In this document: one piece after another, positions 447 through 32,000 of the stretch
Position numbering within the stretch: position 1 is the stretch's first letter
Layout: each line of letters begins with the position of its first letter
The notes under the pieces: model-generated
Told to the model about the DNA's origin: nothing
Seen by the model: the letters and a program-made list of their open reading frames with translations, nothing else
Database searches by the model: none
Program-made: the position numbers and the translations under genes
Source: Halomicronema hongdechloris C2206
GTDB lineage: Bacteria > Cyanobacteriota > Cyanobacteriia > Phormidesmidales > Phormidesmidaceae
Reading direction: 5' to 3'
Length of the DNA: 32,000 bases
Assembly: GCF_002075285.3 (NCBI RefSeq)
Contig: NZ_CP021983.2
Location: forward strand, 4,650,001 to 4,682,000

Positions 447-2879
447 TTATCGTCGCATCAAAAACGGCAATCGGTAGAACCAGAGGGTAGCCAGCGGTAG
501 GGCAATGGGCAGAAGCACCAGCCCAGCAACATAGACTTGCAGGCTAATGATGGCATAGAGTAGGGAGCCACTGACTAGGAAGATGCACTGCCGCCGCCGG
601 TGGAGGCTAGTCTGGTCGATTACTTTGCTCAGTAATGCCGCCATTAGTACTAACCACAGGTCGGGCAGGGGCACGACCAAATGGCGGTGGCGAAAGTGGT
701 GAAACAAATAGCCATGGACTTCGCCTCCCAGGAGAACGGTGCTGTTATTGGCAGGAGCCTGGCGCTGACGCCAGTAGGCCATGGCTGCAGGCAGGGGGAA
801 ATTGTCTTCATTGAGTTCGCTGACACCAGCTTCGCCGTATCCCCCTGGCATGATCATCACCACTGCTTGGGGATAGTCCTGCCGCAGCTGCGGGGGTGAG
901 CTTTCTAGGAGCTGCCAAGCCGGTATTTGGCTGTAGAGCCGCTGCGGTGGCAGGGAGTAGTCGACGATGGGATGCAACCAGGTTTGCCCCAGACGATAGG
1001 CACTGGTGGTCACCGAGGCAGGCTGCATGCGGGGAGAGGTTAAGTGGGCTGGTACCGCTTGGTGTCCTTGGGAGAGGTCGACGGATTGGTGGCCTGAGCT
1101 CAGGACGTCAGCCAGGGCCATGAGATAGGCCAGGGGGAGGGGCCAGTCGGGACTATAACGGCTGAGAAGTAGGGGCACTAAGCGCCCCTGGCCAAATAAC
1201 TTGATGTCCCCTTGCCAGCTCCAGTCGGGGTTGCCTAGGGCCGGTAGAGGGGTTAGCCACTGCCCAGTTTGGTCGAGGTAAGTGGCTAGAATAAACCAGA
1301 TATCGTCTTGAGCCGCAGTCTCTAGGGTCTGGGCCAGGATATTGTCGTCACTGACTAAGGGGCGATCTAGAAGATAGTCAATGCTGATGACCGCTGGTTG
1401 CAATTGGGCAGTTTTGTCGACGACCCGCGCCAGATAGCGCCGATCCATGGGCCGGGGGTTGCTAATGTCGGCCCGGATCAGAGAATCATTGTCGATGGTG
1501 ACTAGCAGCAGCTCTGGCGATGCAGCCGGCAGCTGGCCGGTGCGATCGCGGTAGATGGCTTGGCTCCAGAGTCGCTGATCTAGCAAGCCCCGTTGTAGAG
1601 GGGGCAGTAGACTCAGGGTTACCATCACCCCGATCACGGCGACTTCGTAGCGGGTTGGCAGCCAGGCCCGTAGTTGCTGGCGCCAGCCCTTGGGGGCAAT
1701 GCGGTAGAGGGGGGCATCGGGGTGGCGAAACAGGGACGGGACTAAGTGAGCCGAGGGATAGGTGAGGGCATGCTCTAGTTTGAGGGCCTGACTGGCCTGG
1801 ATCAGGGCGGTGTGGACGTCGTCGTGGGCGGCTAGCCGCTGCAGGAAGCGGCGCAGGAATACATGGGCCACTTGGTTATGGACCGGTTCTCGAAAGATGG
1901 CGACCTGGCTCAGGCCTAGGTCGATCAGGGATTCGGCTAGATTGAGGCCGCTGCAGGAGTTGAAGAGGGCAAAGCGCAGGCCCCGTTGCTGGGCGATGGC
2001 TAAGCTGGGGGCCAGTTCGCGAACAGTTAGGGTGACGCCGGGTGCGATCGCAAGTTCCCCGCCGGTCAGGGCCGTCTCATTGCTATGGCCAGCGAACAAG
2101 AGTCCATCCCAGCCCTGGTCAGCGGCAATGGTATTGGCAATTTGGCGTTTCAGCTCACCGCTGTGGCAGCCAGGCTGCCAGCCGACAAACACCACCTCGG
2201 CCAGGCGGTTCAGGGCCCCGATGGCGGCCCGATCGCCAGCGAAATTGAGGCCCGTCTCATCTCCCAGGATGACGAGTAAGCGGGGACGGCGGCGCGGCGG
2301 TGGAGCATTGGCTGGGGCGCGAATCCTAGCCGGTGACCGCACCAAGCGCAACGGATGGACGGCGGCAAACTCGCTGCCAATCTCCCAGCTTTCCCAGGGA
2401 AGGCGGGCCACCTCTAGGGGATGGCAGGTGAGATAGAGATCCACTGGCTGCCCTTGAGCTTGGTGGCCGATCTGGGCGCGAATCTCGAATAGCTCTGGGC
2501 TGCGCAGCCAGCGATGAAAGTCGTAGAGGAGCTGGGCTTCTGCCTCGACTAACCGAGCCGACCAATCCACCGCCGAGGTCAAGCCGCCGCTACTCTGAAC
2601 TCGTCCGCGCAGGGAAGTGGGCGATACTGGCGGGGCCGGGGCCGGATCTTCCAGGTGACGATAGACCTGAAGATAGGCCTGCTGCCAGTGCTGATAGTGC
2701 TGCAGCAACTCAGAGCGCCAGGGTAAGGCTGCCGCTAGATGCTGGCCTTGGCCCCAGGTCAGGTCGAAGAGGCAGGTCTGCTCCACCCGATGCACCTTGA
2801 GGTGGAGGGACGTGGCGGTGGGGGGGATGCGATCGCACGGTAACAACTCAGTATCAGGATCAATATCAATCGATATCAA
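447..2879 (-). CDS. CHAT (caspase-like protease) - CHASE2 sensor membrane protein
   Basis: 810-codon ORF; the track start is TTG at 2879, so the true start is uncertain. The central CHAT module carries a His/Cys dyad context (LLFAGHSNE ... LFNSCSGLN). It is followed by a TM helix, a CHASE2-like extracytoplasmic region (LLLVTIDNDSL...RRYLARVVDK...ISIDYLLDRP) and three C-terminal TM helices. Confidence 0.85.
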   Translation of the reverse strand: MISIDIDPDTELLPCDRIPPTATSLHLKVHRVEQTCLFDLTWGQGQHLAAALPWRSELLQHYQHWQQAYLQVYRHLEDPAPAPPVSPTSLRGRVQSSGGLTSAVDWSARLVEAEAQLLYDFHRWLRSPELFEIRAQIGHQAQGQPVDLYLTCHPLEVARLPWESWEIGSEFAAVHPLRLVRSPARIRAPANAPPPRRRPRLLVILGDETGLNFAGDRAAIGALNRLAEVVFVGWQPGCHSGELKRQIANTIAADQGWDGLLFAGHSNETALTGGELAIAPGVTLTVRELAPSLAIAQQRGLRFALFNSCSGLNLAESLIDLGLSQVAIFREPVHNQVAHVFLRRFLQRLAAHDDVHTALIQASQALKLEHALTYPSAHLVPSLFRHPDAPLYRIAPKGWRQQLRAWLPTRYEVAVIGVMVTLSLLPPLQRGLLDQRLWSQAIYRDRTGQLPAASPELLLVTIDNDSLIRADISNPRPMDRRYLARVVDKTAQLQPAVISIDYLLDRPLVSDDNILAQTLETAAQDDIWFILATYLDQTGQWLTPLPALGNPDWSWQGDIKLFGQGRLVPLLLSRYSPDWPLPLAYLMALADVLSSGHQSVDLSQGHQAVPAHLTSPRMQPASVTTSAYRLGQTWLHPIVDYSLPPQRLYSQIPAWQLLESSPPQLRQDYPQAVVMIMPGGYGEAGVSELNEDNFPLPAAMAYWRQRQAPANNSTVLLGGEVHGYLFHHFRHRHLVVPLPDLWLVLMAALLSKVIDQTSLHRRRQCIFLVSGSLLYAIISLQVYVAGLVLLPIALPLATLWFYRLPFLMRR
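1542..1549. repeat. HIP1 octamer GCGATCGC (one example of at least 18 exact copies in the window)
   Basis: Exact copies are also seen near 2044, 2829, 4407, 4969, 7689, 12071, 12458, 13929, 15492, 16145, 17818, 19000, 21519, 26945, 28959, 29809, 30525 and 31025. Confidence 0.9.
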
Positions 2880-2892
2880 CAGGACGACTGCC

Positions 2893-4213
2893 CTAGCAGA
2901 AATCTGGTTGGAAGCCCAGGGGCGGTAAGGTCAGGATGGTGCCGTCAGGGAATCGCAATGACACCTGGAAGGTCTCCTGCCAACTACCAATGACCTGGGC
3001 ATAGAGATAGTCATCCCCCTCATCATCGGCGAAATAGCGCTCTACCAACAGGGTTTGGTCGTCGGAAATCTGTAGCCCGGCCCCCAACGGTCGAGACTGA
3101 CCCGGCTGCGGTCCCAAAATCACCAGCAGGGTCCATTCTGGATCCCCTGTGGTCCCTGCCAGGGCCCAACTGAGGGCATAGAGCCGCAGCCCTCCCCCAG
3201 CCCAAGAGACATCATGGTAAGCCGCCGCTGCCCCTGAGCCCATAGATAGGCCACGATCGTCTAAAGACTGTAGTAGTGACCCCAGATCATCCAGGGTGGT
3301 GGTGCGCATGGCGGTGGCCAAGTTGGGGGGTGGCAATAGGGTCCAGGCCAGCGATTGGGCTAGGGGATCGAGCTGTTGCCGCAGCCATAGCCCCGTGTTG
3401 ATCACCCCCTGGGACCAGGTCAGATGTGGCGTTGACCTGGGGCCAGGCGGGGGTCTGTCCCCGTTGCACTCCATAGAGCCAACGGGTCCAATCGGGATGA
3501 CTGAGCAGAGCCGCCCCTAGGGACCAGGGCAGCCTGGCCTCCGGTAAGACATCAGCCTGTTGCAGCTGCGGCAATAGCTGTTGTAAGCGGGTCTGGTGGT
3601 TAGCTGTTAGATCGGGGGTGGCGGTCGTGGTCACCGGCAGGGCGGCGGCTTCTAGGCAACGCAGGTATAGCAACAGCTGTTCGCTATCTCGCTCAAACCA
3701 GCTGAGAGGCACTGATAATGCCCAATCTACCTGATGGGAGTCTGGGCCCAATTGCCGTAACAGCTGATCGCGTCGCAGCACGCCCCCTACCCGCGCCGTC
3801 CCTCGATGCTCATCCACTTCCATCCAGACAAATAACTGGGCGGCCCAATCGGGCAATTCCACGGCGGCCTTGGGCAGCGGCAGCACTGAGTCTACCAAGG
3901 TGCCGCTGGTGAGCAGGCAGAGTCGCAGCTCTCCGACTCGCAATCCACAGACGGCGTCAATGGCATGGGCATAGGCCGGATCCTGGAGAGACACCTGGTC
4001 AGTGCCAAGCGCCAACTCTGGAGCCCGTTCCTGCAGCCAACTGGTGAATCCCTGCAGGGCGAGGCCATGCAGATAAATGCGCCACTGCCGCTCTGGGTGA
4101 GGGTCGGCCTGGCTGCGGGTTGCCGCTTGGGCCACTTGGTCTGGGGTAAGCTCCAGGATGTCGGCGTCTAAGCCTTCGTGTTCTAGGTCGATATGGTCGT
4201 CAAAGGCAATCAT
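2893..4213 (-). pseudogene. DUF1822-family protein, split over two frames (frameshift near 3425-3460)
   Basis: ORF 3287..4213 (N-terminal part, credible to about WLYGVQRGQTPAWPQVNA) and ORF 2893..3474 (credible from about HLTWSQGVINTGLWLRQQLDPL to the C-terminus) overlap in frames offset by 1 nt. Joined, they give a roughly 435-aa protein of the cyanobacterial DUF1822 type. ATG at 4213 lies 4 nt after the upstream stop. Confidence 0.7.
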
Positions 4214-4217
4214 GGTG

Positions 4218-5666
4218 TCATCTCCGGCTGTCTAGGTGGCGGCAAAGGGCTACGGTAAACTGGCTGCGATGTTGACTCTGGGTGGTGGCTTCGGTTTCGG
4301 CGGTGGCCATCAGGCTATCCACCCGCTCGGCCAGAGCGGCGTCGATCTGGGCATTCAAGTGGTGCAATCGCTCGGGATCGACATAGGCCTGGGCTAGCTG
4401 TCGGGTGCGATCGCACATCTGTTGCAATAGATGCTGACGAATATCGGCCCGCAGGGCCTTTAACTTCAGCAGGCGGCTGACTTGATACTGCTGGCTGAAG
4501 CCGATTTGCCGGGCAATCTCACCCATGGCCAAGCCGTCGCAGTGAAATAGCCGCAGCGCCTTGAGAAAGGGCTCTATCTTCTCAGGTTGGCGGCGTTGCA
4601 GCCGCGCTAGCCAGGTCTCGATCACCGTGGCGATGGCCTGCTGCAGGCATTGGTCAAATACCTGACGAAAACCAGCTAAAAACTGGGCCGTGTCGTCTTC
4701 CTGCGGGGCAGGAGCTCGCATCCCCTGGGCCACCGCCGCAATTTCGGGCCGATCCAGCGATTCGGTCGGCACCAGCCCGCCCCGCACATGGATGCGGTAG
4801 TGGCGTAGGTAGCTGGCTAAGGCCTGCAACTGACCCAATAAATCGTCCTCAGACAGCTTTTGGGCCAGGGCACGGGGCAACTGCTGGGCCAGGCGTTGGA
4901 GCTGCTCTGGGGTAGGGGGCACACAGCCCCCGCCGCCGCCGGCCTGTCGCTGCTGGATGCGATCGCGACGATAGACCCCATGATAACTCTGCAGCAACTG
5001 TTGGGCTTGGGTGACCTCTGTCGGGCTGAGGCCATGGAACTCCCCCAAAATTTTCGATACCTGCTTCACGGAGGTATCGTTGAGAATGGCCCAGTCGCTG
5101 ACCAAGTAGACCCCGTGCTGCAGCAAGAAGCGGTTCAGGTCACGATGGTGGCGCACTCGCCGGGTCACCCAAGTGCTGAGACTGGCTCGCTGCGGATCAA
5201 AACTCCGCAGAATGTCAGCCGCCAAAGAACAATAGGTTTCACTGCTAGAGTTGGCCAAGGGCTCCAGGGGATAGGTCTCATCCAGCACGAAGGGAAATAA
5301 CTCATAGCGGGTAAACCCATAGCGTTCGCCAAAGCGTGCCTCTAAATCCTGACAAACCCACTCCACCTGATTGGACACATAGCACCGGAGGCAGCCCTCG
5401 GCCACCGTAATTTGATCAGCCGCCGCCTGCCACTGGCTCAACAGATAGGCTTGAATGGCGGTATCCGTTGCCGTTTCGGCACCCTTGGTTAGATGCTGGG
5501 CCAGATAGGTCTTGGCCGTGGGCAATAGGTGGGGGCTAATGCGGCTACTCGCGGTGATGCGGACCAGTCGCCAGTATTTGGATGGAATCTCAGAAGGACT
5601 ATCCATAGGAGACAGACTACGCATCCTGGGCGGAGCATTCAACACCATAGTAGGAGAGAGGGGCAT
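4218..5666 (-). CDS. sigma-70 family-like protein (atypical, long)
   Basis: 482-codon ORF with a C-terminal region-4-like HTH (LRLFHCDGLAMGEIARQIGFSQQYQVSRLLKLKALRADIRQ). It is the first gene of a same-strand, tightly spaced four-gene cluster. The start could be one of several early Met codons. Confidence 0.75.
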   Translation of the reverse strand: MPLSPTMVLNAPPRMRSLSPMDSPSEIPSKYWRLVRITASSRISPHLLPTAKTYLAQHLTKGAETATDTAIQAYLLSQWQAAADQITVAEGCLRCYVSNQVEWVCQDLEARFGERYGFTRYELFPFVLDETYPLEPLANSSSETYCSLAADILRSFDPQRASLSTWVTRRVRHHRDLNRFLLQHGVYLVSDWAILNDTSVKQVSKILGEFHGLSPTEVTQAQQLLQSYHGVYRRDRIQQRQAGGGGGCVPPTPEQLQRLAQQLPRALAQKLSEDDLLGQLQALASYLRHYRIHVRGGLVPTESLDRPEIAAVAQGMRAPAPQEDDTAQFLAGFRQVFDQCLQQAIATVIETWLARLQRRQPEKIEPFLKALRLFHCDGLAMGEIARQIGFSQQYQVSRLLKLKALRADIRQHLLQQMCDRTRQLAQAYVDPERLHHLNAQIDAALAERVDSLMATAETEATTQSQHRSQFTVALCRHLDSRR

Positions 5667-5963
5667 GGACTATCCTGACAGGGGGTGAACCGCCAGCAGA
5701 TATCTCTGACGGCCATGAGCCTATGCACTGTTGCCGGAGGGGTGACAGCCGTTAGGCATTTTTCTAGGGATAAACTAAAGTATTGACTGGGCTACTCTGG
5801 AGCTGGGTCAATGACTCTGAAGTTTTTTCGGCAAAATACTTTAGGGTTAAGTGAATGGCTGAGGCTATCATCAGCCAGCACCGCCATCCCAGGGTTACCC
5901 TGAATCGATGACCTGGAAGCCACTGTAACCGCTAAACCTAGAGCGGTTGCTTCAGCCGGGATA

Positions 5964-8791: not shown

Positions 8792-9233
8792 AGCGGGGGA
8801 ATTTAGTGCGACGACGCACGCGCTTGCGCAGGTGGAGCTCGCATCCCCCCTGCATCCAGGTGACGTCATCAAAAACTTGGTAGAGAATATAGAGCCCGCG
8901 ACCGCATTCCTCCACGGAGTGGTTGCAATCACCATCAAGCTCCTTGTGGCGGCAGCAGGGATAGGAAAATCCACTGCCTTGATCGGTAATAATCCACCAG
9001 TAATCGTCACCGTTTACGGTAAATCTGACCGATATTTTCTTGCCAGGATCCAGTTTATTGCCGTGCTTAGCGGCATTGACTAGGGCTTCTTGCAACCCCA
9101 GCCGAACTTCTGCCTGCCACGGATCAGGGATGCCTGCCAAGAGCAGATCCAAAATGGGACAGAGATAGAGGGTCGATACAAAGCTGAGGTTATCCCATTT
9201 GCAGTTGGCCGGTGGTGGAGAAAGCGCTAACAC
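8766..9233 (-). CDS. anti-sigma regulatory factor / Ser-Thr kinase of the RsbW-SpoIIAB (HATPase_c) type
   Basis: N-box EALVNAAKHGN and G-boxes DQGSGF / GRGLYIL are present. The GTG start at 9233 is preceded by GGAGGA 7 nt upstream. Confidence 0.75.
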   Translation of the reverse strand: MLALSPPPANCKWDNLSFVSTLYLCPILDLLLAGIPDPWQAEVRLGLQEALVNAAKHGNKLDPGKKISVRFTVNGDDYWWIITDQGSGFSYPCCRHKELDGDCNHSVEECGRGLYILYQVFDDVTWMQGGCELHLRKRVRRRTKFPRFTESVAHG

Positions 9234-9239
9234 AGAGGA

Positions 9240-10071
9240 TCCTCCAAAAACTGTGAGAACAAAATGGCCAAATGAGTTTAGTTAATGTTTGTCAGGGCTA
9301 TAAAGAGCAGGAATAAGGCAAGGTTGGACACGAGATGAATCGTTACGGCGCTTATCTAAGGCGCTTATCTAAGGCGCTTATACAGCTCTCACTGAATAGG
9401 CTAAAGCTTAGGATACTAAAGCTTGATAATAGGGGTGTCACTACTCAAGTTGAGTCTGGAGAAATAGGGAATAATGCCTGAGCATTGGCAACCCGAAAAA
9501 GCGCAACCCAAGGATTATCTCTGCAGAGAGTCGTGTTGAATTGAATCGGTGAAAGGCTGGCATTGGTCTTAGGTGACACGTGATTGACAAAGATACACTG
9601 CTCTAGCCGTTTGGATCAGGGAGATAGCTGGTTTAGCCGGTCTTTCGAGAAGAGGGTGATCAGCCCTAGAGGGCCATCGCAAGCGTCATATCAGATGTTA
9701 CCTGTCATCGACGTTGACATTTGTTACCAAGGCACTAAGAAATACTACAGGCTCCGAAAAAATTTGAATCTGACAGCCATGAATTACTGCCGTAGTTTAA
9801 AGGATGAATTTTAAAGCAGCCTATCCAGTTCAACTGATTGGCTACACAGATACCTTTCTATTTTATCAGCATATCCGTTTAGGCTAAGCCCTATCTGAAA
9901 CAAGTACTGGATCTCTTAGCTTTGCTGACGTAGACACCGATGTTCAGGTCATGCCTCTCCTGAAATTGGCCCAAAACAGTTCATGCGTATTGTTCACCCG
10001 TGGGGACAATCAGGGCTGTTTACTGGCTCACTAGTCACTGGCTCGCTATACACTACTAGAGCCCCCTTCTA
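9240..10071. other. about 830-bp AT-richer gene-free region upstream of the ECF transporter genes
   Basis: No convincing ORF is present; the only track ORF (9584..9814) starts at TTG and has no protein-like features. The region is visibly less GC-rich than its flanks and contains short tandem repeats. Confidence 0.6.
9347..9383. repeat. 13-nt tandem repeat GGCGCTTATCTAA, about 2.8 copies
   Basis: Read directly: ggcgcttatctaa ggcgcttatctaa ggcgcttatac. Confidence 0.85.
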
Positions 10072-13891: not shown

Positions 13892-14605
13892 TCAGAGTTG
13901 ACTGGGATCGATACCGAGTTCCCGGAGTTTGGCAAAGGCGCGATCGCGTTCTTGCTGAGCCCGATCGCGTTCTTGCTGAGCCCGATCACGCTCCTCGATA
14001 ACCGCTTCCGGATCCTGGAAGGGGGTCCCGTTTGGATAGTAGACCGCTAAACCCTGGTCGGATAGATCGAAGCGAATGCCTAAGGTGGGAGAGGTCCAGG
14101 GAAAATTGAGCGGCAGAATGGGCGCAAACCCCTGCTCTGGAGTGGTGCGCACCAGTCCCCAGAAGTCAAAGGAGTCTGGGTCATAGAAGAACATTTCCAA
14201 CACACCGTACTTTCCATAGAAGGCCTGTTTAGCCAGCATTTCCCGAGCACTATTGTTGGGCGACAGAATTTCAAAGACCACCTGCGGCGCAATATTGTCT
14301 TCTTCCCATTGTTTATAACTGCCCCGGTCACCGTCAGGGCGGCCTAACACCACCATGACATCAGGCGCCTGAGCCGGAGCCGGCGGTGTCTCGACCGGAA
14401 TGGGATACCACAGTAGATCTCCTGCCACGAAGGCGGTTTGGTCTTTGAGTAACCGCTTAAGATTGGTGACCAGACGGACAATCCAGCGATATTGGATTGT
14501 GTTGTCAGCCATGGGGTTACCGTCTGAGTCCGGATAGAGAATTTGGGGAGCGATGGGACTATGAACCATAGACGGCCCCTTGGTTGCAGACGAGTACAGC
14601 CCCAT
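13892..14605 (-). CDS. Uma2 (DUF820) family endonuclease with repeated ERDRAQQ tail
   Basis: Matches include YPDSDGNPMADNT, PDVMVVLGRP and VVFEILSPNNSAREM (PD-(D/E)xK-like E-x-S/K context). The likely start is ATG at 14569 (MVHSPIAPQ). The C-terminus reads ERDRAQQERDRAQQERDRAFAKLRELGIDP. Confidence 0.85.
   Translation of the reverse strand: MGLYSSATKGPSMVHSPIAPQILYPDSDGNPMADNTIQYRWIVRLVTNLKRLLKDQTAFVAGDLLWYPIPVETPPAPAQAPDVMVVLGRPDGDRGSYKQWEEDNIAPQVVFEILSPNNSAREMLAKQAFYGKYGVLEMFFYDPDSFDFWGLVRTTPEQGFAPILPLNFPWTSPTLGIRFDLSDQGLAVYYPNGTPFQDPEAVIEERDRAQQERDRAQQERDRAFAKLRELGIDPSQL
13931..13989. repeat. 21-nt tandem repeat (about 2.8 copies) encoding the ERDRAQQ heptads
   Basis: cgatcgcgttcttgctgagcc appears twice, followed by a diverged partial copy. 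The first copy begins inside a HIP1 site. Confidence 0.8.
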
Positions 14606-14710: not shown

Positions 14711-15577
14711 ATGGCGGAGCAGCAATTTGATGTTTTCCTCGCCCATAGCAGCAAGGATAAGCGGCTCATTCGGCAAATCTACCGGCAGCTCAAAGCACGA
14801 GGCATTCGACCCTGGCTTGATGAAGAGGAGATTGCTCCCGGCACTAGGTTCGCAGACGAGATTCAACAGGCTATTGGTCAGATCAAATCCGCAGCTGTTT
14901 GTATTGGTCAGAGTGGATTAGGCCGCTGGCAGGTCTTAGAACTGGAGGCATTCATCAGACGCTGCGTCGAGCGAGATATCCGAGTGATTCCAGTGTTATT
15001 GCCTGGGGTTGACCGTATTCCAGATAATCTAATCTTCCTTGGCGGGTTTCATGCTGTGCCGTTTTCAACGGATATCAACGATGAGAGAGCCCTGTCTCAA
15101 CTGGTGTGGGGTATCACTGGACAAAAGCCGACCCGAGAGCCTAACAATTCTCACTCTGAGGCCGCTCCTGTTTTAGAACCAGATGATCTCAGCTCCGAAA
15201 AAGGCATTGACTATACTCACCTGCGGGACCTGCTGGCAGCAGGGGACTGGAAAGCGGCGGATCAGGAAACGGCGGATCGCATGCTTGACGCCATGGGTAA
15301 GAGCAGTTGGGGCAATGTTCCCAGCAAGGATCTACTGAACTTTCCCTGCGCTGACTTAAAGACAATCGATCGGCTCTGGGTGAAATACAGCCAGGGACAA
15401 TTTGGTTTTAGCGTGCAGAAGGATATCTACGTGGAGTGCGGGGCAAAACTCGACGGCGAATACCCAGGTGATGCGATTTGGGGCACGTTCTGCGATCGCA
15501 TCGGCTGGCGAAGAGGAGGCCAGTACATCTCCTACTCTGATGGGATATTTGACACCTCCGCACCACAAACTGTATAG
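14711..15577 (+). CDS. TIR domain - GUN4 domain fusion protein
   Basis: N-terminal TIR motifs: FDVFLAHSSKDK, LDEEEIAPG and RWQVLELEAF (candidate catalytic Glu). C-terminal GUN4 motifs: DYTHLRDLLAAGDWKAADQETADRML, NFPCADLKTIDRLWVKYSQGQFGFSVQKDIY and IGWRRGGQYISY. Confidence 0.9.
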   Translation: MAEQQFDVFLAHSSKDKRLIRQIYRQLKARGIRPWLDEEEIAPGTRFADEIQQAIGQIKSAAVCIGQSGLGRWQVLELEAFIRRCVERDIRVIPVLLPGVDRIPDNLIFLGGFHAVPFSTDINDERALSQLVWGITGQKPTREPNNSHSEAAPVLEPDDLSSEKGIDYTHLRDLLAAGDWKAADQETADRMLDAMGKSSWGNVPSKDLLNFPCADLKTIDRLWVKYSQGQFGFSVQKDIYVECGAKLDGEYPGDAIWGTFCDRIGWRRGGQYISYSDGIFDTSAPQTV

Positions 15578-18652: not shown

Positions 18653-19981
18653 TCATAGGGTGTAGGTGAATGCATCCACTAACATACCAGGCGCCCAGGT
18701 GCCGCCCAGGCGGCGATGATCGTAGGTGCTGACCTGGGCAATCCACTCCGACTCCTGGGTCAGGTTTACCAAATTATCGCCCCAAAAGTGATAGAGACTC
18801 TCATCGAAGCGCAGGTTCTCGATCGGGGCCACGATCTGGCCGTTTGCTACCCAGAAACAGGCATAGCGGGTCATGCCGGTGAGGTATCCCTGGGGCCGAT
18901 CGCTCCAGTTCAGGTAATGCAGGTTGGAGACATATAGGCCCGTGTCCAGGGCTGCCAGCGCGTTTTCCCTGGGTAGGGTGCCCCCGGCTAAGACTTGCGA
19001 TCGCATCGCCTCGGATGCCGCCGCCGCCGTCGAGGCCAGGCCATATTCTCGGGCCGAGCGAGCACTGACCAGCTCATTGATCAGTCGTCCCGCTTGAATT
19101 ACCGGCAGCGTCATGGCAGCCAGGTCACCATCCTGATTGAAGCGGGGCACCTGGCCCTGGCTGAAGTCCTCCCGCAGGTGAATCTGCCCAGACAGCCGTC
19201 GCTCCCCCCGCTGTAGCAGCCCCAGGGGACTGCTGCCCCGGCGCAGGGCCCCAGCCCCGACTCCGCTGCGGCCCACCATCGTGACCAGATCCGCCACTGC
19301 CGCCGGTTCCAGGTAGGTGCGATAGGTCCCCGGAGCCATGACCTTAGCCGGATGGGCCAGCTGAGCGAGGTGCTCCCTGGCTGCGGTCACCTGCTGCTGG
19401 TACTCATCGGCGTCCCAGTGCTGGCCGGCGTACATTCGCTTGATGGCCTTGCCATCGGCTGTAAACAGGGAATAGTCCAGGGTGAAGGTATTCCGCTCAA
19501 ACCAATGGCGCTGACCGGCAGAATCGGCATAGGCCCGAATCAACCGGCCTCCAGCGTAGAAGCCGACGGCATCCAGCCCGGCCAGAGGTTGCAACACCGT
19601 CGGCACCACCGCTTCGCAGCAGAGCAATTGCCCCGGTTGCCGATCCCGGCTAGAGTCTCCTCCCGTTGGCAACACCTGGTAGGGATCCGGCGGTAAATCG
19701 GGGAGCTCCTGGCGCAGCTCCTCTAGGGTCGCCATGGCCATGGCCTGATCCAGGGCCAGCTCTCCTGTAAAGGGCAGTGTCTGACTCAGGGTGCGCTGGC
19801 CAGCCATCAGGGTCAGGGTCAACCGGCCATCCACCACCTGGCCACTCTGGCGCACCCTGGCCCGGTTAAAGCGAGTGAATTGGCTGGTTTCAGCCACTAG
19901 ATTGAGCCGGATGTGCTCTTGGGGCTGCAGCTGTGACACCAGGGCCTCGACCAGGCGATAAAAAACCGGTTCCCACGCCAT
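18653..19981 (-). CDS. pmbA: TldE/PmbA-family metalloprotease subunit
   Basis: 442-aa PmbA_TldD-fold protein directly downstream of tldD. Its ATG overlaps the tldD TAA by 1 nt (TAATG at 19979-19983). Confidence 0.85.
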   Translation of the reverse strand: MAWEPVFYRLVEALVSQLQPQEHIRLNLVAETSQFTRFNRARVRQSGQVVDGRLTLTLMAGQRTLSQTLPFTGELALDQAMAMATLEELRQELPDLPPDPYQVLPTGGDSSRDRQPGQLLCCEAVVPTVLQPLAGLDAVGFYAGGRLIRAYADSAGQRHWFERNTFTLDYSLFTADGKAIKRMYAGQHWDADEYQQQVTAAREHLAQLAHPAKVMAPGTYRTYLEPAAVADLVTMVGRSGVGAGALRRGSSPLGLLQRGERRLSGQIHLREDFSQGQVPRFNQDGDLAAMTLPVIQAGRLINELVSARSAREYGLASTAAAASEAMRSQVLAGGTLPRENALAALDTGLYVSNLHYLNWSDRPQGYLTGMTRYACFWVANGQIVAPIENLRFDESLYHFWGDNLVNLTQESEWIAQVSTYDHRRLGGTWAPGMLVDAFTYTL

Positions 19982-21535
19982 TAGCCCCCGCCCCCAAATA
20001 CCTTAATCTCCTCAAAAGCTGCCACCGGAGAGCCATGGCCCACCCGGATTAATTGATTCGGTTCCCCCTTGCCACAGAAAGGAGTGCCAAAGGCCTGCCA
20101 GGTGTCTCCATTGCCCACCTGCACCAGGCTGTGCCAAAACTGGGGCGTCGTGGCCCGATAGTTGGGGTTGCGCAGGGTTTCCGCCAGTCGTCCTTGGCGA
20201 ATGCGCTTGCCATATTCACAGCCAAACTGAAACTTATGGCGCTGATCATCGATGGACCAAGAGCGATTCGCCTCCATATAGACGCCATCCTCGATGGTGG
20301 CGATGATCTCGGCCCAGGAGCGATCCCCCGGCTCCAGGTTAATATTGGCCATGCGATCGATGGCCGGCCGATTCCAAGATGTGGCCCGAGCGCAGGCGAC
20401 CCCCGGTAACCCAGAGCGCACTTGGCTCTCCCGGCCGCCCAGGCCCCGCTCTAACACCCCCTGGCGAATCAGATACTGGCGTTCGGGCCCCCACCCCAGT
20501 GTCATCAAAGCCATAGCTAGCTAGCTGGTGCTCTAGGGTGGGGTCGAAGGTGACGTTTAGCAGAGGCGAACCGTATTGCAACTGGCCAAAGTCCTCGGGT
20601 TTAACAAAGCTGCCGCCGGCATAGTTGCGCTCATCCCCCAGAATCCGATCCAGTTCCAGGGGATGGCCGATGCTCTCATGGATTTGCAGCAGCATCTGGT
20701 CCGGGGCCAGCACCAGGGTACTGGTCATCGTCGGGCACTCTGGGGCGGTCAATAACTCCACCGCCTGCTCTGCCGCCTGCTGCACCGCCTGCCAGAGGTC
20801 CTCTGCCTCTGCCAGGTGTTCCCAGCCGCCTTGGTAGTAGTGGGCATAGGGGCCATTGTGATGACGGGTCTGCACCACCGCCCCAGCTTGGGCCGTGGCC
20901 CCGAAGTGGGTGCCAAAGTAGGTAAATTGCTGCTGCACCCGGGTGCCACTGCTGCTGAGCAGCCAAATGTCCGTAGTTTGGCTGTGCAGACTGGCGATGG
21001 TCTGCACAATCTGCTCTGACACGTTTAGGCCTTGGCAGATCTGAGCCAGCAAGGCATTGATGTCGCCGCCGCTGATCTGGTCGGGGGGTTGGAGCACCGA
21101 AGAGGTATAGAGCCCCAATTCCCGCGGCCGCATGCCCGAGGAAAAAGCCTGCAGCTGCCAGGGAGCAGCGGCCTGGGCTTGTTGATAGGCCTGGTGGGCC
21201 GCCGCCTGCAGCCCCGTCACGGTGAGCTGATTGCTGGCGGCATAGCCCAGTTGCCCCGCTACCAATACTTCCACCATGGCGCCCTGATCCCGGTAGCGGT
21301 GGTTCTGTTGGGGGCGGCCATCCCGTAGGGTGCGCTGGCTGCCAGTGGTGCGCTGGGCTCGCATGCCAATCCAGTCGGCGGGCAGATCCAAGATCGAAAG
21401 CACCTCGTCGAAGAGGGCCATCGGGTCAACCGTGGAGGCAGGCGTGACTGTCACAGGGGCAAGGACCATGGGAAATGCAGCGTTTCCCATTGTAGGTAGG
21501 TTGGCGATGGAATCGGGATGCGATCGCATGGCCAC
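19981..21535 (-). pseudogene. tldD: TldD metalloprotease, reading frame broken once near 20481-20497
   Basis: ORF 20339..21535 carries the HExxxH motif (HESIGHPLE) and is credible to ...ASYGFDDTGVG. ORF 19981..20514 is credible from ...ERQYLIRQGVLERGLGG to the C-terminus (FCGKGEPNQLIRVGHGSP). The frames differ by 1 nt and meet at the run gggcccccacccc. Confidence 0.85.
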
Positions 21536-27196: not shown

Positions 27197-27233
27197 GGCC
27201 GCTGACTTTGAGGATGCCTAATAAGTAACCCTT

Positions 27234-27911
27234 TTAGTGAGCGGCCAATCGTTGCAAAATTTGTGCCACCTGATGCAAGTCATTGCCTGCAACGGTACTC
27301 AGGGTGAACTTGTCCGACAGGCCATACATGCCGGTTTCGCGATCAAGCTTCACAAACAGAAAATCTTCCCCCGTCGTAATTAAGGCAAACACAGGAGAGA
27401 CCGGGGCTGTGACCATATACCCTAGGGTTTGCGCAATGGCCTGCCGCCCACTAAACCCATAGCGCTTGCTCTCAATCACAATCAGCCACAGATGCTCATC
27501 TAGCAACAGCGCATCAATCAAGCCCTCTAGCATGGTCTCGCCATCTTCAATGGCAACGCGTACATATTTCTCACCCCGCACCTGATAAGGGGGATCCATC
27601 AAACTCAAGGTTTCCAGCAGAGGAGCCAGCAGAATCAGGTTGACGGTGCCTTCAGTAATGGCACCGCTGTCGGCATAGAACAAATAGCGCTGCTTCAGGT
27701 GATCCAGCCTGACTTTTTGGGCGTCTGTTAGCGATGGCAGTGGTGCTTGCCATTCCAGAAAAAACGCAGCATCTTGGCTAGGCGCCACCCCTAATTTGGT
27801 GCGGGCTTCATTGAGGTTGGTAATGGCTTGAGTGATGCCAGCAGTGACCATAACAGCAAGCATTGCCTGATGTTCATCACGGTAGCATGGGGCGGATAGA
27901 GATAGAGTCAT
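27234..27911 (-). CDS. PD-(D/E)xK-fold protein of the cyanobacterial HsdR_N-like (type I restriction enzyme R N-terminal domain-like) family
   Basis: The nuclease-like core is EGLIDALLLDEHLWLIVIESKR ... QTLGYM ... ALITTGEDFLFVKL. Candidate starts are ATG 27911, 27863 or 27851. The part of the track ORF at 27912-28184 is the in-frame translation of a DNA tandem repeat and is probably not coding. Confidence 0.75.
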   Translation of the reverse strand: MTLSLSAPCYRDEHQAMLAVMVTAGITQAITNLNEARTKLGVAPSQDAAFFLEWQAPLPSLTDAQKVRLDHLKQRYLFYADSGAITEGTVNLILLAPLLETLSLMDPPYQVRGEKYVRVAIEDGETMLEGLIDALLLDEHLWLIVIESKRYGFSGRQAIAQTLGYMVTAPVSPVFALITTGEDFLFVKLDRETGMYGLSDKFTLSTVAGNDLHQVAQILQRLAAH

Positions 27912-27914
27912 CTC

Positions 27915-28124
27915 GCCTAAACATGGCGGCGTCCTAGAGAAAAATCTATGGGGACCGCCTAGAAATAGATCAGTACCAGCAAAAAATAGCTGCGTCCCAG
28001 AGAAAAGTCTATGGGTCCCGGACAAAAATGGTTGCGTCCCGCCCAGAAATAGATCAGTACCGGCAAAAAATAGCTGCGTCCCAGAGAAAAGTCTATGGGT
28101 CCCGGACAAAAATGGCGGCATCCC
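27915..28124 (-). repeat. ten tandem 21-nt repeats (minus-strand consensus about GGGACNCANNNATTTTTNTCY) with an 84-nt higher-order period
   Basis: Units on the minus strand: gggatgccgccatttttgtcc / gggacccatagacttttctct / gggacgcagctattttttgcc / ggtactgatctatttctgggc / gggacgcaaccatttttgtcc / gggacccatagacttttctct / gggacgcagctattttttgct / ggtactgatctatttctaggc / ggtccccatagatttttctct / aggacgccgccatgtttaggc. The array ends 3 nt before ATG 27911. Confidence 0.9.
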
Positions 28125-28253
28125 GGAATCCAGGCAGAGGTCTTTGCCACTGGTCGATAGCCCGCATTGCGAGGCGATGGTCATTGGCTAAGCCACCCCA
28201 GAGGGGCTAGCCTGGCCCTGCAGGACCATCGCTACCCGTCCTCCGGACTCACA

Positions 28254-28445
28254 ATTTCCGCTTCTGCCCTTCCCAAAGCTGTCTGACCGTAAATAAGGTT
28301 CTCAGGCTCAGGCATTTATCCTGATGTCGTTACTGGATAGAAGCCTGCCCATGCACCCCGCCGCCCACCTCCTCAGCCTCGCCCCTCACCGCTCTCCTCG
28401 TTCCCGCTCTTGAGGTCACCGCCACGCCATCCCAGAAACCGGGTC
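28254..28445 (+). repeat. copy 1 of the TPR-CHAT gene leader plus signal-peptide start (degenerate 5' gene fragment)
   Basis: It aligns by eye with 30030-30215: ttcccaaagct..., ctcaggctcagg..., tatcctgatgtcgt..., then ATG 28351 MHPAAHLLSLA. After a 1-nt frame slip, LTALLVPALEVTATPSQKP parallels LTALFIPVIQVAATQIPET of the intact gene. Similarity stops at 28445. Confidence 0.8.
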
Positions 28446-28470
28446 TTTGCTTGAAATCAAATCACTGTTT

Positions 28471-28803
28471 ATGTTGATTCCCTATGCCGCGAATGCAGTT
28501 GTGGATATTCGTAAACTCCGCGACTATTGCCTAAATTCAGAGCATGATGACGGTAAACACAAAGCGCGGTTGTTTCGGTCAAAGCTGGGTATGACCTCTG
28601 ATGATGCAGAGGCTTTACGTCAAATTCTGCTTGCGGTCGTAGTATCCCGCGAGGCTCAGCTAGGGCGACGCGATCAGTTTGGGCAACGCTACACCGTAGA
28701 TTTCATGGTCGAATGGCAGAATAGAAGTGCAACGGTTCGGAGTGGCTGGATCGTTGAGCATGGCTCAGAAACGCCAAAATTGACGACGTGTTATCCCCTG
28801 TAG
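28471..28803 (+). CDS. DUF6883-like protein (putative toxin-antitoxin-type module component)
   Basis: VDIRKLRDYCLNSEHDDGKHKARLFRSKLGMT ... GQRYTVDFMVEW ... VRSGWIVEHGSETPKLTTCYP matches my memory of DUF6883. The track start TTG 28447 is replaced here by ATG 28471. Confidence 0.7.
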   Translation: MLIPYAANAVVDIRKLRDYCLNSEHDDGKHKARLFRSKLGMTSDDAEALRQILLAVVVSREAQLGRRDQFGQRYTVDFMVEWQNRSATVRSGWIVEHGSETPKLTTCYPL

Positions 28804-28821
28804 TGCTGGGAGACCAGACGT

Positions 28822-29070
28822 ATGACGGCTAATCAAATTAACTTACTAGATGTTGTCGCCTTAACCCTCGATTTGCCGGAGTATGGCTTATTACGTGGGC
28901 AGGTCGGAACCGTTGTCGAGTTGCTCGCTGACGGTCAGGCCTTTGAGGTTGAGTTCAGCGATCGCGACGGTCGCACCTACGAGTCAGTTGGGTTACCGCC
29001 GGAGCAGATCATGGTGCTCCATTTTGAGCCTGCATCACCGAATCATCAGCGCACGATGGCCACAGTTTAA
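28822..29070 (+). CDS. DUF4926-like small protein (usual partner of DUF6883)
   Basis: INLLDVVALTLDLPEYGLLRGQVGTVVELLADGQAFEVEFSDRDGRTYESVGLPPEQIMVL matches the DUF4926 pattern from memory. It lies 18 nt after the preceding gene. Confidence 0.75.
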   Translation: MTANQINLLDVVALTLDLPEYGLLRGQVGTVVELLADGQAFEVEFSDRDGRTYESVGLPPEQIMVLHFEPASPNHQRTMATV

Positions 29071-29093
29071 GCCATGCCGGAGAAGCGGCAACC

Positions 29094-29216
29094 AAAAATT
29101 CAAAATTCAAAGCTTGTCCTCGCGAAGGCGGGGATTCAAAATTCAAAATTCAAAACTCAAAATTCAAAACTCAAAACTCAAAACTCAAAACTCAAAACTC
29201 AAAACTCAAAACTCAA
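29094..29216. repeat. heptanucleotide tandem repeats (AAAAYTC), about 2.5 + 12 copies around a GC-rich 22-nt core
   Basis: aaaaattcaaaattcaaag - cttgtcctcgcgaaggcgggg - attcaaaattcaaaattcaaaactcaaaattcaaaactc(aaaactc)x5 aa. Confidence 0.9.
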
Positions 29217-29342
29217 CCCTTCACCTTTCCCAAAGCTTTCCTAAACCTGAATAACCTCTCCCGGCTCAGAACTATATCCTGATGTCGTTACCGGAATGGA
29301 AACCTGCCCATGCGCCCCGCCGCCCACTTCCTCCACCTCGCT
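29217..29342 (+). repeat. copy 2 of the TPR-CHAT gene leader plus first about 10 codons
   Basis: cccttcacctttcccaaagctttcctaaacctgaataacctctcccggctcagaactatatcctgatgtcgttaccggaatggaaacctgcccATGcgccccgccgcccac is near-identical to 30030-30140. Similarity ends at about 29342. Confidence 0.8.
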
Positions 29343-29416
29343 GATTTCCTCATTTCGGAGGCCAGGTATTCTGGAAGTAATCCTGATTTCTTGAAGAGCA
29401 ATCCCCCTGAGACCCA

Positions 29417-29620
29417 ATGCCCTTAAATCTAACCATCGAATATCCTGACACCTTGCCGGATGCCCTAGGTCGCACCCGTGACCAGTTTGAGCAGGAAGCC
29501 AAATGGGCAATGGCGGTCAAGCTATTTGAGTTGAAGCGGTTATCTTCTGGCATGGCGGCCTCTCTAATCGGAGTCGATCGCATCACCTTGAACTCACCAA
29601 CACTTTCAGCCTGCTGTTGA
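29417..29620 (+). pseudogene. UPF0175-family antitoxin-like gene, 3'-truncated
   Basis: MPLNLTIEYPDTLPDALGRTRDQFEQEAKWAMAVKLFELKRLSSGMAASLIGVDRIT fits UPF0175. The last roughly 10 codons are antisense to a PIN fragment. No partner toxin gene follows. Confidence 0.6.
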
Positions 29621-29664
29621 TCGAGGAGTCGCTCTAACCAGATATTGGTGTCAATCAGATACAT
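29590..29664 (-). pseudogene. PIN-domain (VapC) toxin, N-terminal about 25 codons only
   Basis: MYLIDTNIWLERLLDQQQAESVGEF is a typical VapC N-terminus with the first acidic residue (D5). The rest of the track ORF 29350..29679 is antisense to the UPF0175 gene and not PIN-like. Confidence 0.5.
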
Positions 29665-29869
29665 CGCGGCTCCAGTCATCTACAGTTTCTTGCTGTAGGC
29701 TCAGGCTGGTGTATTGCTCCCGGTAGGCACTCATCGCCCCCGCCCAGTCTTGCTGGAGATAGCGCTGGGGCCGATGCTGGTACTGCTGGAGCAGGTTGGT
29801 CAGATAGGCGATCGCTTGCTGCTGCGCCTGCGGTGGGAGATTTTGAATTTCGTGCAAGATGGGATGCAT
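29651..29869 (-). CDS. DUF2281-type VapB-like antitoxin
   Basis: 72-aa protein (MHPILHEIQNLPPQAQQQAIAYLTNLLQQY ... WAGAMSAYREQYTSLSLQQETVDDW). It overlaps the start of the PIN fragment by 14 nt, as in vapBC operons. Confidence 0.65.
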   Translation of the reverse strand: MHPILHEIQNLPPQAQQQAIAYLTNLLQQYQHRPQRYLQQDWAGAMSAYREQYTSLSLQQETVDDWSRDVSD

Positions 29870-30004
29870 GGGGCCAGAATTGCTAAAGGTGTCTTGAATC
29901 CACTTCCATTCTGCCCGAAAGCCTCAGCCCCGTCCTATTTCCCTGTCCCGGCACTCACCATCCCGCGCTCATTCTTCCCTTACCTTCACCCTCCACTCAA
30001 AGTT

Positions 30005-30215
30005 CGTCCCTTCACCCTTTACCCTTCGCCCTTTCCCGCTTTCCAAAGCTTTCCTAACCCTGCATAAGCTCTCCCGGCTCAGAGCTATATCCTGATGTCG
30101 TCCCCGGAAGGAAAACCTGTCCATGCGCCCCGCCGCTCATCTCCTCAGCCTCGCCACCCTCACCGCCCTGTTTATTCCTGTTATCCAGGTCGCTGCCACC
30201 CAGATTCCGGAGACA
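30005..30215 (+). repeat. copy 3 (the functional one) of the leader plus signal-peptide region
   Basis: It shares the pyrimidine-rich stretch, ttccaaagctttcctaac, ctcccggctcagagctatatcctgatgtcgt and ATGcgccccgccgc with copies 1 and 2. Confidence 0.75.
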
Positions 30216-32000
30216 TTTCAAAAGCCTCAAGATCCAGAGCAACCACAAGGCAATCCATTACTCCTAGATCAACAGCCCCTCTCAGAACGTCAGGCAGAGG
30301 CGAACAGATTACGTCAGCAAGGTTTTGAACAGTACAAAGCCAGACAGTTTCAGGCAGCACGTGAGTCCCTAGAGCAAGCGCTGGTCATTTATCGAGATTT
30401 GGAAGACCGGAAACGAGAAGGACAAATGCTGGGCAGTTTAGGGATTATCCACAGCAATCTAGGGCAATATCGACAGGCCATTAGCTATTACGAGCAGCAA
30501 CTGTTGGTTACCCGCGAAATTGGCGATCGCGTAGGAGAGAGTGATGCTCTCGGCACCTTGAGCAATGTGTACCAAACTTTGGGAGACGATCAACAGGCGA
30601 TTAACTTGCTGGAACAAGCGTTATCTGTTGCTCGGGAAATTGGCGATCGTCTGAGAGAAGGAAGTTCTCTTAATGGGCTAGGGGTTGCCTACAAAGATCT
30701 TGGTAATTATTGGCAGGCCATCGCCTTCTATGAGCAAGCTTTGGCAATTTATCGCGAAATTGATGAACTTTTCGGTGAAGCAGAAGTTCTAGGAAATCTG
30801 GGTGTAGCTTACGGACTGCTGGGCGATCATCGACAAGCAATTAACCTCCACGAGCAGCAGCTAGCCCTTCACGAGCAGCAGCTAGCAATCACTGGCGACA
30901 TCTATCATCACCGTGGATTAGGACGTGCTCTTAGCAGTTTAGGCAATGCTTACTACAGTCTTGGCAACTATCAACAAGCTATTGGTTTTTATGAGCAAGG
31001 ATTAGCTGTTAAACGTCAAACTGGCGATCGCCACGGCGAAGGAAACACCCTGGCAAATTTAGGTAGACTATTTGACGCCCAAGAACAGCCTGAATTGGCC
31101 ATTGTTTTTCTTAAGGCTTCGGTCGAAGTACGCGAGTCCATTCGCAGTGGTATGCGAGACCTCGATCCAGACCTACAAAAATCTTATTTAGATACTGTAG
31201 CGAGCACATATCGCCTGCTAGCTGACCTCCTTCTCCAACAAGACCGCATTATGGAAGCCCAGCGGGTACTGGACTTGCTGAAGGTGCAGGAACTCGACGA
31301 CTACATTCGCGGCGTTGAGCGTACCAGCGAAACCGAAGCAGGGGTTGACTTTCTGCGGCCTGAGGAGACGATTTTGGCCCGGTACGATGCTTTGCAAGAA
31401 TCCGCCATTGCTGCTGGCCAAGAACTCGAAGACCTCAAGGCTATTCCCCGAGAACAACGTAGTGAAGAGCAGGTACAGCGCATTGCCCAACTCACGGACT
31501 TACTGGACGACATCAACGGCGACTTCCGCGACTTTGCCCGCAGTCCCGAAATTCTCAAGCTGATTGATGAATTGAACTTCGAAGCTCGGGAAGCCAGCCT
31601 CAGTCTCAATCAACTCGATCGCCTTCGCGACGAACTCCAGCAGCTCAACGCCGCCATCTTCTATCCCCTCATCCTGGACGATCGCCTGGAGTTGGTGATT
31701 ACCGTGCCCGACTCGCCCCCGCTGCGACGAACTGTTCAGGTGTCTCGCGAGGAGCTAAACGCGGCAATTCTAGAATTCCGCACCGCACTCACCCACCCAG
31801 GTTCTGACGCGGAAACGCCTGCCCAACAGCTTTACGACTGGCTGATCCGTCCTCTGGAAGCTGACTTAGGGGCAGCCGGAGTCGAAACCCTCATCTACTC
31901 CCCCGATGGGCAACTGCGCTACATTCCCCTCGCTGCCCTGCATGACGGTGAGCAATGGCTGATCCAGCAGTACCGCATCAACAACATCACCGCCGAATCT
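30123..32000 (+). CDS. secreted TPR-repeat CHAT-domain protein, 5' part (open to the window end)
   Basis: I translated 626 codons from ATG 30123 to 32000 by hand and found no stop; the ORF is absent from the track because it has no stop in the window. It has a signal peptide (MRPAAHLLSLATLTALFIPVIQVAA), about 7-8 TPRs (LGxLGxxYxxLGxYxQAIxxYEQxLxIxREIGDRxGE) and the start of a CHAT domain (LYDWLIRPLEADL...LIYSPDGQLRYIPLAALHDGEQWLIQQYRI). Confidence 0.9.
   Translation, partial: MRPAAHLLSLATLTALFIPVIQVAATQIPETFQKPQDPEQPQGNPLLLDQQPLSERQAEANRLRQQGFEQYKARQFQAARESLEQALVIYRDLEDRKREGQMLGSLGIIHSNLGQYRQAISYYEQQLLVTREIGDRVGESDALGTLSNVYQTLGDDQQAINLLEQALSVAREIGDRLREGSSLNGLGVAYKDLGNYWQAIAFYEQALAIYREIDELFGEAEVLGNLGVAYGLLGDHRQAINLHEQQLALHEQQLAITGDIYHHRGLGRALSSLGNAYYSLGNYQQAIGFYEQGLAVKRQTGDRHGEGNTLANLGRLFDAQEQPELAIVFLKASVEVRESIRSGMRDLDPDLQKSYLDTVASTYRLLADLLLQQDRIMEAQRVLDLLKVQELDDYIRGVERTSETEAGVDFLRPEETILARYDALQESAIAAGQELEDLKAIPREQRSEEQVQRIAQLTDLLDDINGDFRDFARSPEILKLIDELNFEAREASLSLNQLDRLRDELQQLNAAIFYPLILDDRLELVITVPDSPPLRRTVQVSREELNAAILEFRTALTHPGSDAETPAQQLYDWLIRPLEADLGAAGVETLIYSPDGQLRYIPLAALHDGEQWLIQQYRINNITAES

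Follow-up and report, generated by a model that had tools for sequence, protein, structure and literature searches.

Near the end of a 32,000-nucleotide (nt) stretch of Halomicronema hongdechloris C2206 DNA (contig NZ_CP021983.2, positions 4,650,001 to 4,682,000 of the forward strand; the whole stretch is referred to below as the window), a block of about 140-220 nt occurs in three direct copies with ATG codons at positions 28351, 29310 and 30123, and toxin-antitoxin (TA) genes lie in the intervals between the copies. The repeated sequence is a 5′ module that is conserved throughout a family of genes for secreted TPR-CHAT proteases. The locus as a whole is probably what is left of an eroded tandem array of such paralogous genes, in which two members were lost and the TA cassettes in the spacers were kept, which makes it a case of ordinary gene-array erosion and not of a new insertion mechanism.

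Different types of comparison agree on the extent of the triplet. First, the core GGCTCAGRNNTWTATCCTGATGTCGT is found in the 32-kb window on the plus strand only, at 28305, 29263 and 30076, and had 0 matches in 100 shuffles. Next, the repeat families D3, D5, D6 and D10 and a three-way MAFFT alignment concur on three blocks, every one of which opens with an ACTCA[A/C]A heptamer unit followed by a pyrimidine-rich stretch. Finally, gapped pairwise alignments extend over approximately 28247-28463 for copy 1, over 29204-29341 for copy 2, and from 29995 into the gene for copy 3, with 87% identity between copies 2 and 3 and 73-74% between copy 1 and each of the others (-80 to +33 relative to the ATG). 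A long open reading frame (ORF), encoding TPR and CHAT domains, starts only at ATG 30123. An earlier sequence-only reading of this DNA had proposed three direct copies of which only the third continues into a gene, and both points are borne out, as is its estimate of some ten codons for copy 2, which has 10.7. The account it gave of copy 1 has to be corrected, as the supposed 1-nt slip is actually a 2-nt deletion after about position 28383 with more indels beyond, and the similarity to TPR-CHAT N-termini does not end at 28445 and instead reaches about 28450-28465. Along the window, the locus is composed of the following features (aa, amino acids).

28247..28465, plus strand: copy 1, the 5′ module with a decayed signal-peptide stub of about 36-38 codons (alignment, tblastn, nhmmer E 3e-21).
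28471..28803, plus strand: DUF6883 gene, intact, 110 aa (Pfam E 4.5e-29).
28822..29070, plus strand: DUF4926 gene, intact, 82 aa, the downstream partner of DUF6883 (Pfam E 1.8e-26).
29071..29203, plus strand: junction GCCGGAGAAGCGGCAACCAAAAA with an expanded heptamer microsatellite (AAAAYTC)n (families D2 and D4; alignment to L015 13545-13790).
29204..29341, plus strand: copy 2, the complete 5′ module with 10.7 codons, MRPAAHFLHLA (alignment; nhmmer E 1e-26).
29417..29620, plus strand: UPF0175-family antitoxin gene, 3′-truncated (Pfam positions 2-49 of 75 only).
29575..29679, minus strand: N-terminal fragment of a PIN (VapC-like) gene, about 30 codons, MYLIDTNIWLERLL.. (PIN_3 positions 2-19, E 0.09, weak).
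29651..29869, minus strand: DUF2281/VapB-family antitoxin gene, 72 aa, apparently intact and divergent from copy 3 (PF10047 E 6e-8).
29995..30122, plus strand: copy 3, the functional 5′ module (alignment; nhmmer E 3e-28).
30123..32000, plus strand: TPR-CHAT gene with an N-terminal signal peptide, running past the window end (P0001, 100% identity, 864 aa).

In copy 3, an ACTCAAA unit and the pyrimidine-rich stretch are followed by TGCATAAGCTCTCCCGGCTCAGAGCTATATCCTGATGTCGT, GGAAGGAAA and an inverted repeat AGCTCT-N8-AGAGCT, and the TPR-CHAT protein encoded behind it (P0001) has an intact C-terminus. Copy 1 is assembled from an ACTCACA heptamer unit, the pyrimidine-rich stretch and TAAATAAGG..GGCTCAGGCATTTATCCTGATGTCGT ahead of ATG 28351, and copy 2 has TGAATAACC..GGCTCAGAACTATATCCTGATGTCGT ahead of ATG 29310. 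The frame opened by the copy 1 ATG meets a stop at 28411-28413, after 20 codons; the 2-nt deletion shifts the frame, and the shifted frame reads ..LTALLVPALEVTATPSQKPGL. In that frame residues 9-34 of the TPR-CHAT protein P0022 match 28373-28450 with 61.5% identity (tblastn, E 3e-5), P0008 matches likewise, and P0005 and P0003 match the stub as far as 28459. At the DNA level the alignments of copy 1 to the contigs L015 and L020 and to copy 3 reach 28463-28474, and from the end of the stub to the DUF6883 ATG (28471) there are at most 25 nt, probably 6-12 nt.

The same module is found before intact TPR-CHAT genes on contigs of at least six other cyanobacterial sources. The first part of the module is a regulatory region of about 75-105 nt; a short 5′ untranslated region, with AGGAAA as the ribosome-binding site, comes next, and the ATG and the codons of the signal peptide complete it. 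The consensus is TGAATAAGCT-N7-GGCTCAGAGCTATAT[C/G]CTGATGT, then AGGAAA, the ATG and the signal peptide MRPAAHFLSLATLTALLVP. Before the genes of the relatives the consensus is seen at the DNA level as TGAATAAGCT..C.CGGCTCAGAGCTATATgCTGATGTca...AAGGAAA...CCCATGCG, and in shorter form as TGAATAAGCT..GGCTCAGAGCTATATgCTGATGT..AGGAAA..CCCATGCG. The N-terminus MRPAAHLLSLATLTAL..V.A is likewise common to the TPR-CHAT proteins P0005, P0022, P0008, P0003, P0007 and P0070 from other filamentous cyanobacteria. Sites with an intact gene are L015 10001, 13746 and 4668 (the last on the minus strand), L017, L018, two each in L019, L020 and L021, and L022-L025. A leader profile (nhmmer) was built from these upstream sequences, the carriers being Leptolyngbya/Nodosilinea-like cyanobacteria, and it located four sites in L015, one each in L017 and L018, two each in L019-L021, those in L022-L025 and the three window copies, all of them TPR-CHAT starts or stubs and with E-values from 1e-11 to 1e-29; the copy at L019 4419-4335 was recovered even though it had been left out of the building of the profile.

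The high conservation of this non-coding sequence across genera could also be expected of a dispersed repeat akin to a miniature inverted-repeat transposable element, or of a structured RNA leader or riboswitch, that stands in front of the gene by chance. Such an origin can practically be dismissed, as there are only three copies in the 32-kb window and each copy outside it lies at a TPR-CHAT start or stub; the widespread repeat unrelated to CHAT genes that the sequence-only reading had allowed for is therefore not what the outside copies represent. In addition, the block has no Rfam match at E ≤ 1, RNAalifold on the leaders gives a consensus of -0.16 kcal/mol with 3 pairs, 0 of them compensatory, and thus no covariation, and a repeat search found neither an inverted repeat inside the copies nor terminal inverted repeats. 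An exact-pattern scan of the GTDB species-representative genomes for the leader gave 0 matches and a metagenome pattern scan two contigs only, and in a plasmid collection the DUF6883/DUF4926 and UPF0175 genes were found but the leader was not. The literature search returned nothing on a TPR-CHAT 5′ module or leader, on its stubs, or on TPR-CHAT arrays with stubs.

We infer from position and conservation only that the block would function as a promoter. The best candidates for -35 and -10 elements found by eye are TGAATA/TGCATA, with an 18-nt spacer, and CTATAT. The putative -35 and -10 elements enclose the inverted repeat AGCTCT-N8-AGAGCT of the conserved block, noted at 30067-30086 in the window and in L019 and L020; it is perfect in copy 3 and in L019 and partial in other copies, and constitutes a candidate operator for a dimeric regulator. 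The conserved cis block marks a regulon of secreted TPR-CHAT proteases in several genera and provides a handle for its regulator. A weak match to the leader profile is also present elsewhere in the window, at 5656-5732 on the minus strand (GTGCATAGGCTC..GTCAGAGATATCTGCTG, E 0.09), directly upstream of the operon 447-5666 on the same strand, which encodes a 482-aa ORF, a DUF1822 protein and a CHAT+CHASE2 protein, and this may be the same regulon motif or a chance match. In L029 an operon orthologous to 447-5666 has a DUF6883/DUF4926 cassette about 1 kb downstream.

An intact counterpart of copy 2 exists outside the window. The closest homologue of the window DUF6883 protein, P0122 (86% identical), is encoded on four metagenome contigs from four samples (L022-L025), where the order is a gene for an 81-aa protein on the minus strand, DUF6883, DUF4926, the junction with its heptamer tract, the leader and an intact TPR-CHAT gene. 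The junction there reads GCCGG..AAAGCC.CAAC.AAAAA and is followed by the AAAACTC heptamer tract, and the TPR-CHAT gene, of at least 535 aa, has the family start MRPAAHFLSLATLTALLVP. The window is 84% identical to these contigs over 28470-29111, and its positions 29187-29341 are 77% identical to L022 986-1138, with MRPAAHFLHLA of copy 2 corresponding to MRPAAHFLSLA in L022. Exactly at the end of copy 2, position 29341, the homology to copy 3 stops, as does that to the intact gene of L022. This indicates that copy 2 represents the beginning of a gene which other contigs carry in full and which is truncated here after about ten codons. L022 and L015 also have the junction GCCGGAGAAGCGGCAACCAAAAA, with a shorter tract, in the space that separates DUF4926 from the TPR-CHAT leader. 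The (AAAAYTC)n tract of the window, at 29098-29216, is expanded to about 15 units, with short versions in L022 (approximately 990-1050) and L015 (13645-13670); it may mark the end points of rearrangements.

Tandem arrays of TPR-CHAT genes are present in several relatives, with other small genes in between. L015 carries three TPR-CHAT genes and a fragment among RelB/ParE, two Uma2 genes and an insertion sequence (IS); in L018 and L019 the end of a CHAT gene is followed by Uma2 and then by a leader and the next TPR-CHAT gene; L020 has two TPR-CHAT genes with an IS630-like element between them; and L021 has three, together with C14 and trypsin protease genes. Truncation is seen there as well, since at 9222-9380 L015 contains an independent decayed leader with a stub of about 30 codons directly after the RelB/ParE pair. 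This stub begins within the last ParE codons, the TAA stop of ParE being part of the CTTAAAG of the leader, and is followed by unrelated DNA, the 81-aa gene and the intact leader and gene of P0022. Of the two histories that the sequence-only reading had left open, the former paralogue array with two members lost is consequently favoured, because the module is family-wide, arrays exist in relatives, and copy 2 is intact in L022-L025.

The other history, in which an insertion duplicates its target, has no support from these comparisons and appears very improbable. Under it, TA circles carrying the leader would have integrated, either site-specifically or in a Campbell-type manner, to form an integron-like array. 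The repeat-cargo-repeat-cargo-repeat layout would suit such a process, as would the RelB/ParE pair abutting a leader copy in L015 and the fact that in three lineages, namely the window, L022 and L015, DUF6883/DUF4926 immediately precedes a TPR-CHAT leader, L015 retaining the DUF4926-end/junction/leader layout as a remnant before the P0010 gene. The cassette is moreover found in L022 and is absent in L015, where the shared 81-aa gene stands directly ahead of the P0022 leader with no cassette there, and it thus shows presence and absence at one position between lineages. Cassette turnover at the same inter-gene position is therefore real, yet it is separate from duplication, as the L022 cassette is unaccompanied by a leader duplication. 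The ends of the stubs also differ (about 28465, codon ~37, and 29341, codon ~10), so that there is no fixed crossover core, and in its other contexts the cassette is flanked by unrelated sequence without a leader, lying by hisS, by XisH/XisI, downstream of a DUF1822-CHAT/CHASE2 operon and in other settings, as well as on Stanieria and Pseudanabaena plasmids. No integrase, resolvase or transposase domain is found in the scanned ORFs of at least 100 aa of the 32-kb window, the block has no inverted repeat in the repeat search and no hairpin in a single-strand DNA fold of both strands (z -0.47 to +1.36), and the copies are 13-27% diverged and hence not recent.

Erosion of an array would have proceeded from a state in which small mobile genes, such as TA pairs, Uma2 endonucleases and IS elements, occupied the spacers between TPR-CHAT genes. 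Two members would then have lost almost their entire bodies to deletions, one beyond about codon 37 and the other beyond about codon 10, with the intergenic TA material retained, and the deletion at stub 1 would have fused the stub to within at most 25 nt of the DUF6883 start codon. Cassette 1 would have come through intact and cluster 2 would have lost both toxin genes through a further deletion. Stub 1 is accordingly inferred to have once been a full gene at its present position.

The DUF6883/DUF4926 pair in the first interval is an intact mobile two-gene toxin module. DUF6883 has 2307 homologues, which are 75-86% identical and of the same length, and DUF4926 is paired with DUF6883 in every context examined (L022-L032). 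The dN/dS ratios relative to L022 are 0.15 for DUF6883 and 0.08 for DUF4926 (dS 0.48 and 0.90, respectively), which indicates that both genes are functional and under purifying selection. DUF6883 has been assigned to the BECR-Tox3 RNases with DUF4926 as its conserved partner, a bioinformatic assignment only (bioRxiv 10.64898/2026.08.28.747851), and the window proteins would by sequence be a putative BECR-Tox3 RNase toxin and its putative immunity protein or antitoxin. The DUF6883 ATG of L022 has about 100 nt of unrelated DNA in front of it; in the window this upstream DNA is gone, which leaves the cassette without room for a promoter of its own. The cassette is most likely transcribed from the regulatory region of stub 1, and such a dependence would explain why the core of stub 1 is still recognisable.

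In the second interval, the genuine similarity of the UPF0175 gene, which has relatives on cyanobacterial plasmids, ends at about 29585, and the truncated gene runs head-on against the minus-strand PIN fragment that comes after the DUF2281/VapB gene, an arrangement which shows that deletions acted on this interval. A single deletion, judging from this layout, removed the bodies of both toxin genes, and two antitoxin genes remain, of which one is truncated. The product of 29651-29869 also matches the NCBIfam entry NF050009 (TA_VapB) with E 0.0015, which is below the curated cutoff, and NCBIfam added nothing else. The cargo annotations of the sequence-only reading therefore stand for DUF6883, DUF4926, UPF0175 and DUF2281, all with Pfam matches, and its VapC is reduced to the fragment of about 30 codons. 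The ORF opened by copy 2 has 38 codons (29310-29426), and its TAA at 29424-29426 overlaps the UPF0175 ATG at 29417 (ATGCCCTTAA); the overlap resembles translational coupling and may be a coincidence.

Several observations weigh against an eroded array and have to be set beside the evidence above. In 27200-30122 there are no 3′ or gene-body remnants of the lost genes, only N-terminal stubs. The window copies share TTCCCAAAGCT, TATCC, GTCGT and CCTG[C/T]CC, all of which are absent from the external leaders, and copies 2 and 3 are 87% alike as against 77-78% to the nearest outside sequence; these lineage-shared bases and the high identity make duplication of the 5′ module alone, or gene conversion, possible. 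The synteny of the locus could be followed through the neighbouring gamma-glutamyltranspeptidase gene only to GTDB species representatives that are about 66% identical or less at best, with nothing else conserved, and a simple sigma-70 and terminator scan called nothing in the block, which bears on its promoter function. A 15-residue match at 27786-27830 on the plus strand, HP*FGAGFIEVGNGL, resembles the TPR-CHAT C-terminus HPYYWAPFILIGNGL with an E-value of about 0.03-0.1 and might be what is left of the 3′ end of another array member. It was rejected as probably a chance match because it lies inside a plausible HSDR_N-like ORF on the minus strand.

The same shared bases, together with the ACTCA[A/C]A unit at the start of all three copies, the identity of copies 2 and 3 to each other in comparison with at most 78% to any outside copy, and the missing gene bodies, would be accounted for by the main rival, a segmental duplication, by short tandem copying or unequal crossover, confined to the 5′ module, that is, to the leader and the first 10-38 codons, possibly with an adjacent cassette. 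The stubs would then never have been full genes, the join between codon ~37 and DUF6883 would be a duplication junction, and the heptamer tract could have served as a point of slippage or recombination. This origin is unlikely, as a tandem duplication of cassette, leader and stub would have left a second cassette, or its DUF4926 junction, ahead of copy 1, where neither is present, and copy 1 has diverged by 26-27% from copies 2 and 3. By eye, the remnant in copy 1 (QKPG[L/F]) is also nearer to the P0022/P0008/L022 type than to copy 3, although the DNA scores do not separate the two, full tandem arrays are normal in relatives, and gene conversion can explain the shared bases. The loss of two full array members thus remains the probable history of the locus. 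A further proposal, that the TPR-CHAT 5′ module is a preferred point of TA capture and retention and that the stubs persist through a dependence of TA operons on their regulatory regions, with addiction protecting the promoter, is unlikely; if it were true, the TA genes would be expressed under the same regulator as the CHAT proteases, and a functional link similar to that of the MaOC1 orthocaspase of Microcystis aeruginosa may lie behind it.

Annotation is where these results are mainly of value: pseudogene stubs account for two of the three gene starts, the DUF6883/DUF4926 pair is intact, and the second TA cluster is debris. The locus further provides a clean natural example of a TA operon that has probably come under the regulatory region of a gene no longer functional, and it bears on the persistence of TA cassettes in cyanobacteria and on the often-noted neighbourhood of caspase-family proteases and TA genes.

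Some other features of the window were recorded alongside. About nine tandem 21-nt units (GTCCCnGnnAAAAAT...) at 27931-28119 separate copy 1 from a PD-(D/E)XK/HSDR_N-like gene (minus strand, 27234 to about 27911, Pfam E 0.011) and artificially lengthen the HSDR_N-like ORF to 316 aa with a 7-residue peptide repeat. At 14711-15577 on the plus strand a TIR-GUN4 fusion (TIR_2 E 1e-21, GUN4 E 6e-35) represents an unusual domain pairing and adjoins a Uma2 endonuclease gene at 13892-14605 on the minus strand. PmbA/TldD-type metallopeptidase genes occupy 18653-21535 on the minus strand, and the second of them appears to be split into the overlapping ORFs 20339-21535 and 19981-20514, which suggests a frameshift or a pseudogene.

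The locus shares traits with several known types of arrangement. When tandem arrays of paralogues erode, 5′ pseudogene stubs remain and TA genes resist deletion. The window corresponds to this in its 5′ paralogue fragments, in the intact TA pair between them and in the loss of toxins before antitoxins in the decayed cluster; unlike in the usual eroding array, the regulatory core of stub 1 still appears intact, and the stub joins a TA operon almost precisely at its start codon. Integron arrays, in which cassettes are separated by attC sites and, in chromosomal integrons, often carry TA genes, are similar in the repeat-cargo-repeat order, the TA cargo and the shared upstream promoter region. In contrast to them, the window is without IntI, an attC-type imperfect palindrome or a single-strand hairpin, and its repeats differ in their end points and include a start codon along with codons of a signal peptide. 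In contact-dependent inhibition (CDI) and Rhs loci an internal or 3′ conserved region is repeated, and orphan toxin domains can fuse to the main gene. The orphan modules of these loci resemble the window in that fragments of a gene region are repeated by small toxin-immunity pairs and form substrates for homologous recombination, whereas in the window the repeats are of the 5′ start and the cargo consists of TA pairs that are self-contained and have no relation to the protease. The cargo of interval 1 has the same two genes, order and sizes as the BECR-Tox3 pair, in a work where an association with the TPR-CHAT 5′ module is not mentioned (bioRxiv 10.64898/2026.08.28.747851).

The nearest described case is the MaOC1 locus of Microcystis aeruginosa PCC 7806, where identical direct repeats of 152 bp enclose the ParE/ParD pair that comes after the orthocaspase gene (Klemencic et al. 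2021, PMC7935541). These repeats are non-coding, have internal inverted repeats and lie downstream of the protease gene; the presence of the TA module differs between strains, and cleavage of the antitoxin by the protease has been shown (PMC7935541). Both loci thus combine a caspase-family protease gene with a neighbouring TA pair that stands between direct repeats of roughly 150 bp. The window protease is, however, of the TPR-CHAT type and not a p20 orthocaspase, and the window repeats, in contrast to the identical ones of MaOC1, are 13-27% diverged, have no inverted repeats and correspond to the protease gene's own upstream region and the start of its signal peptide.

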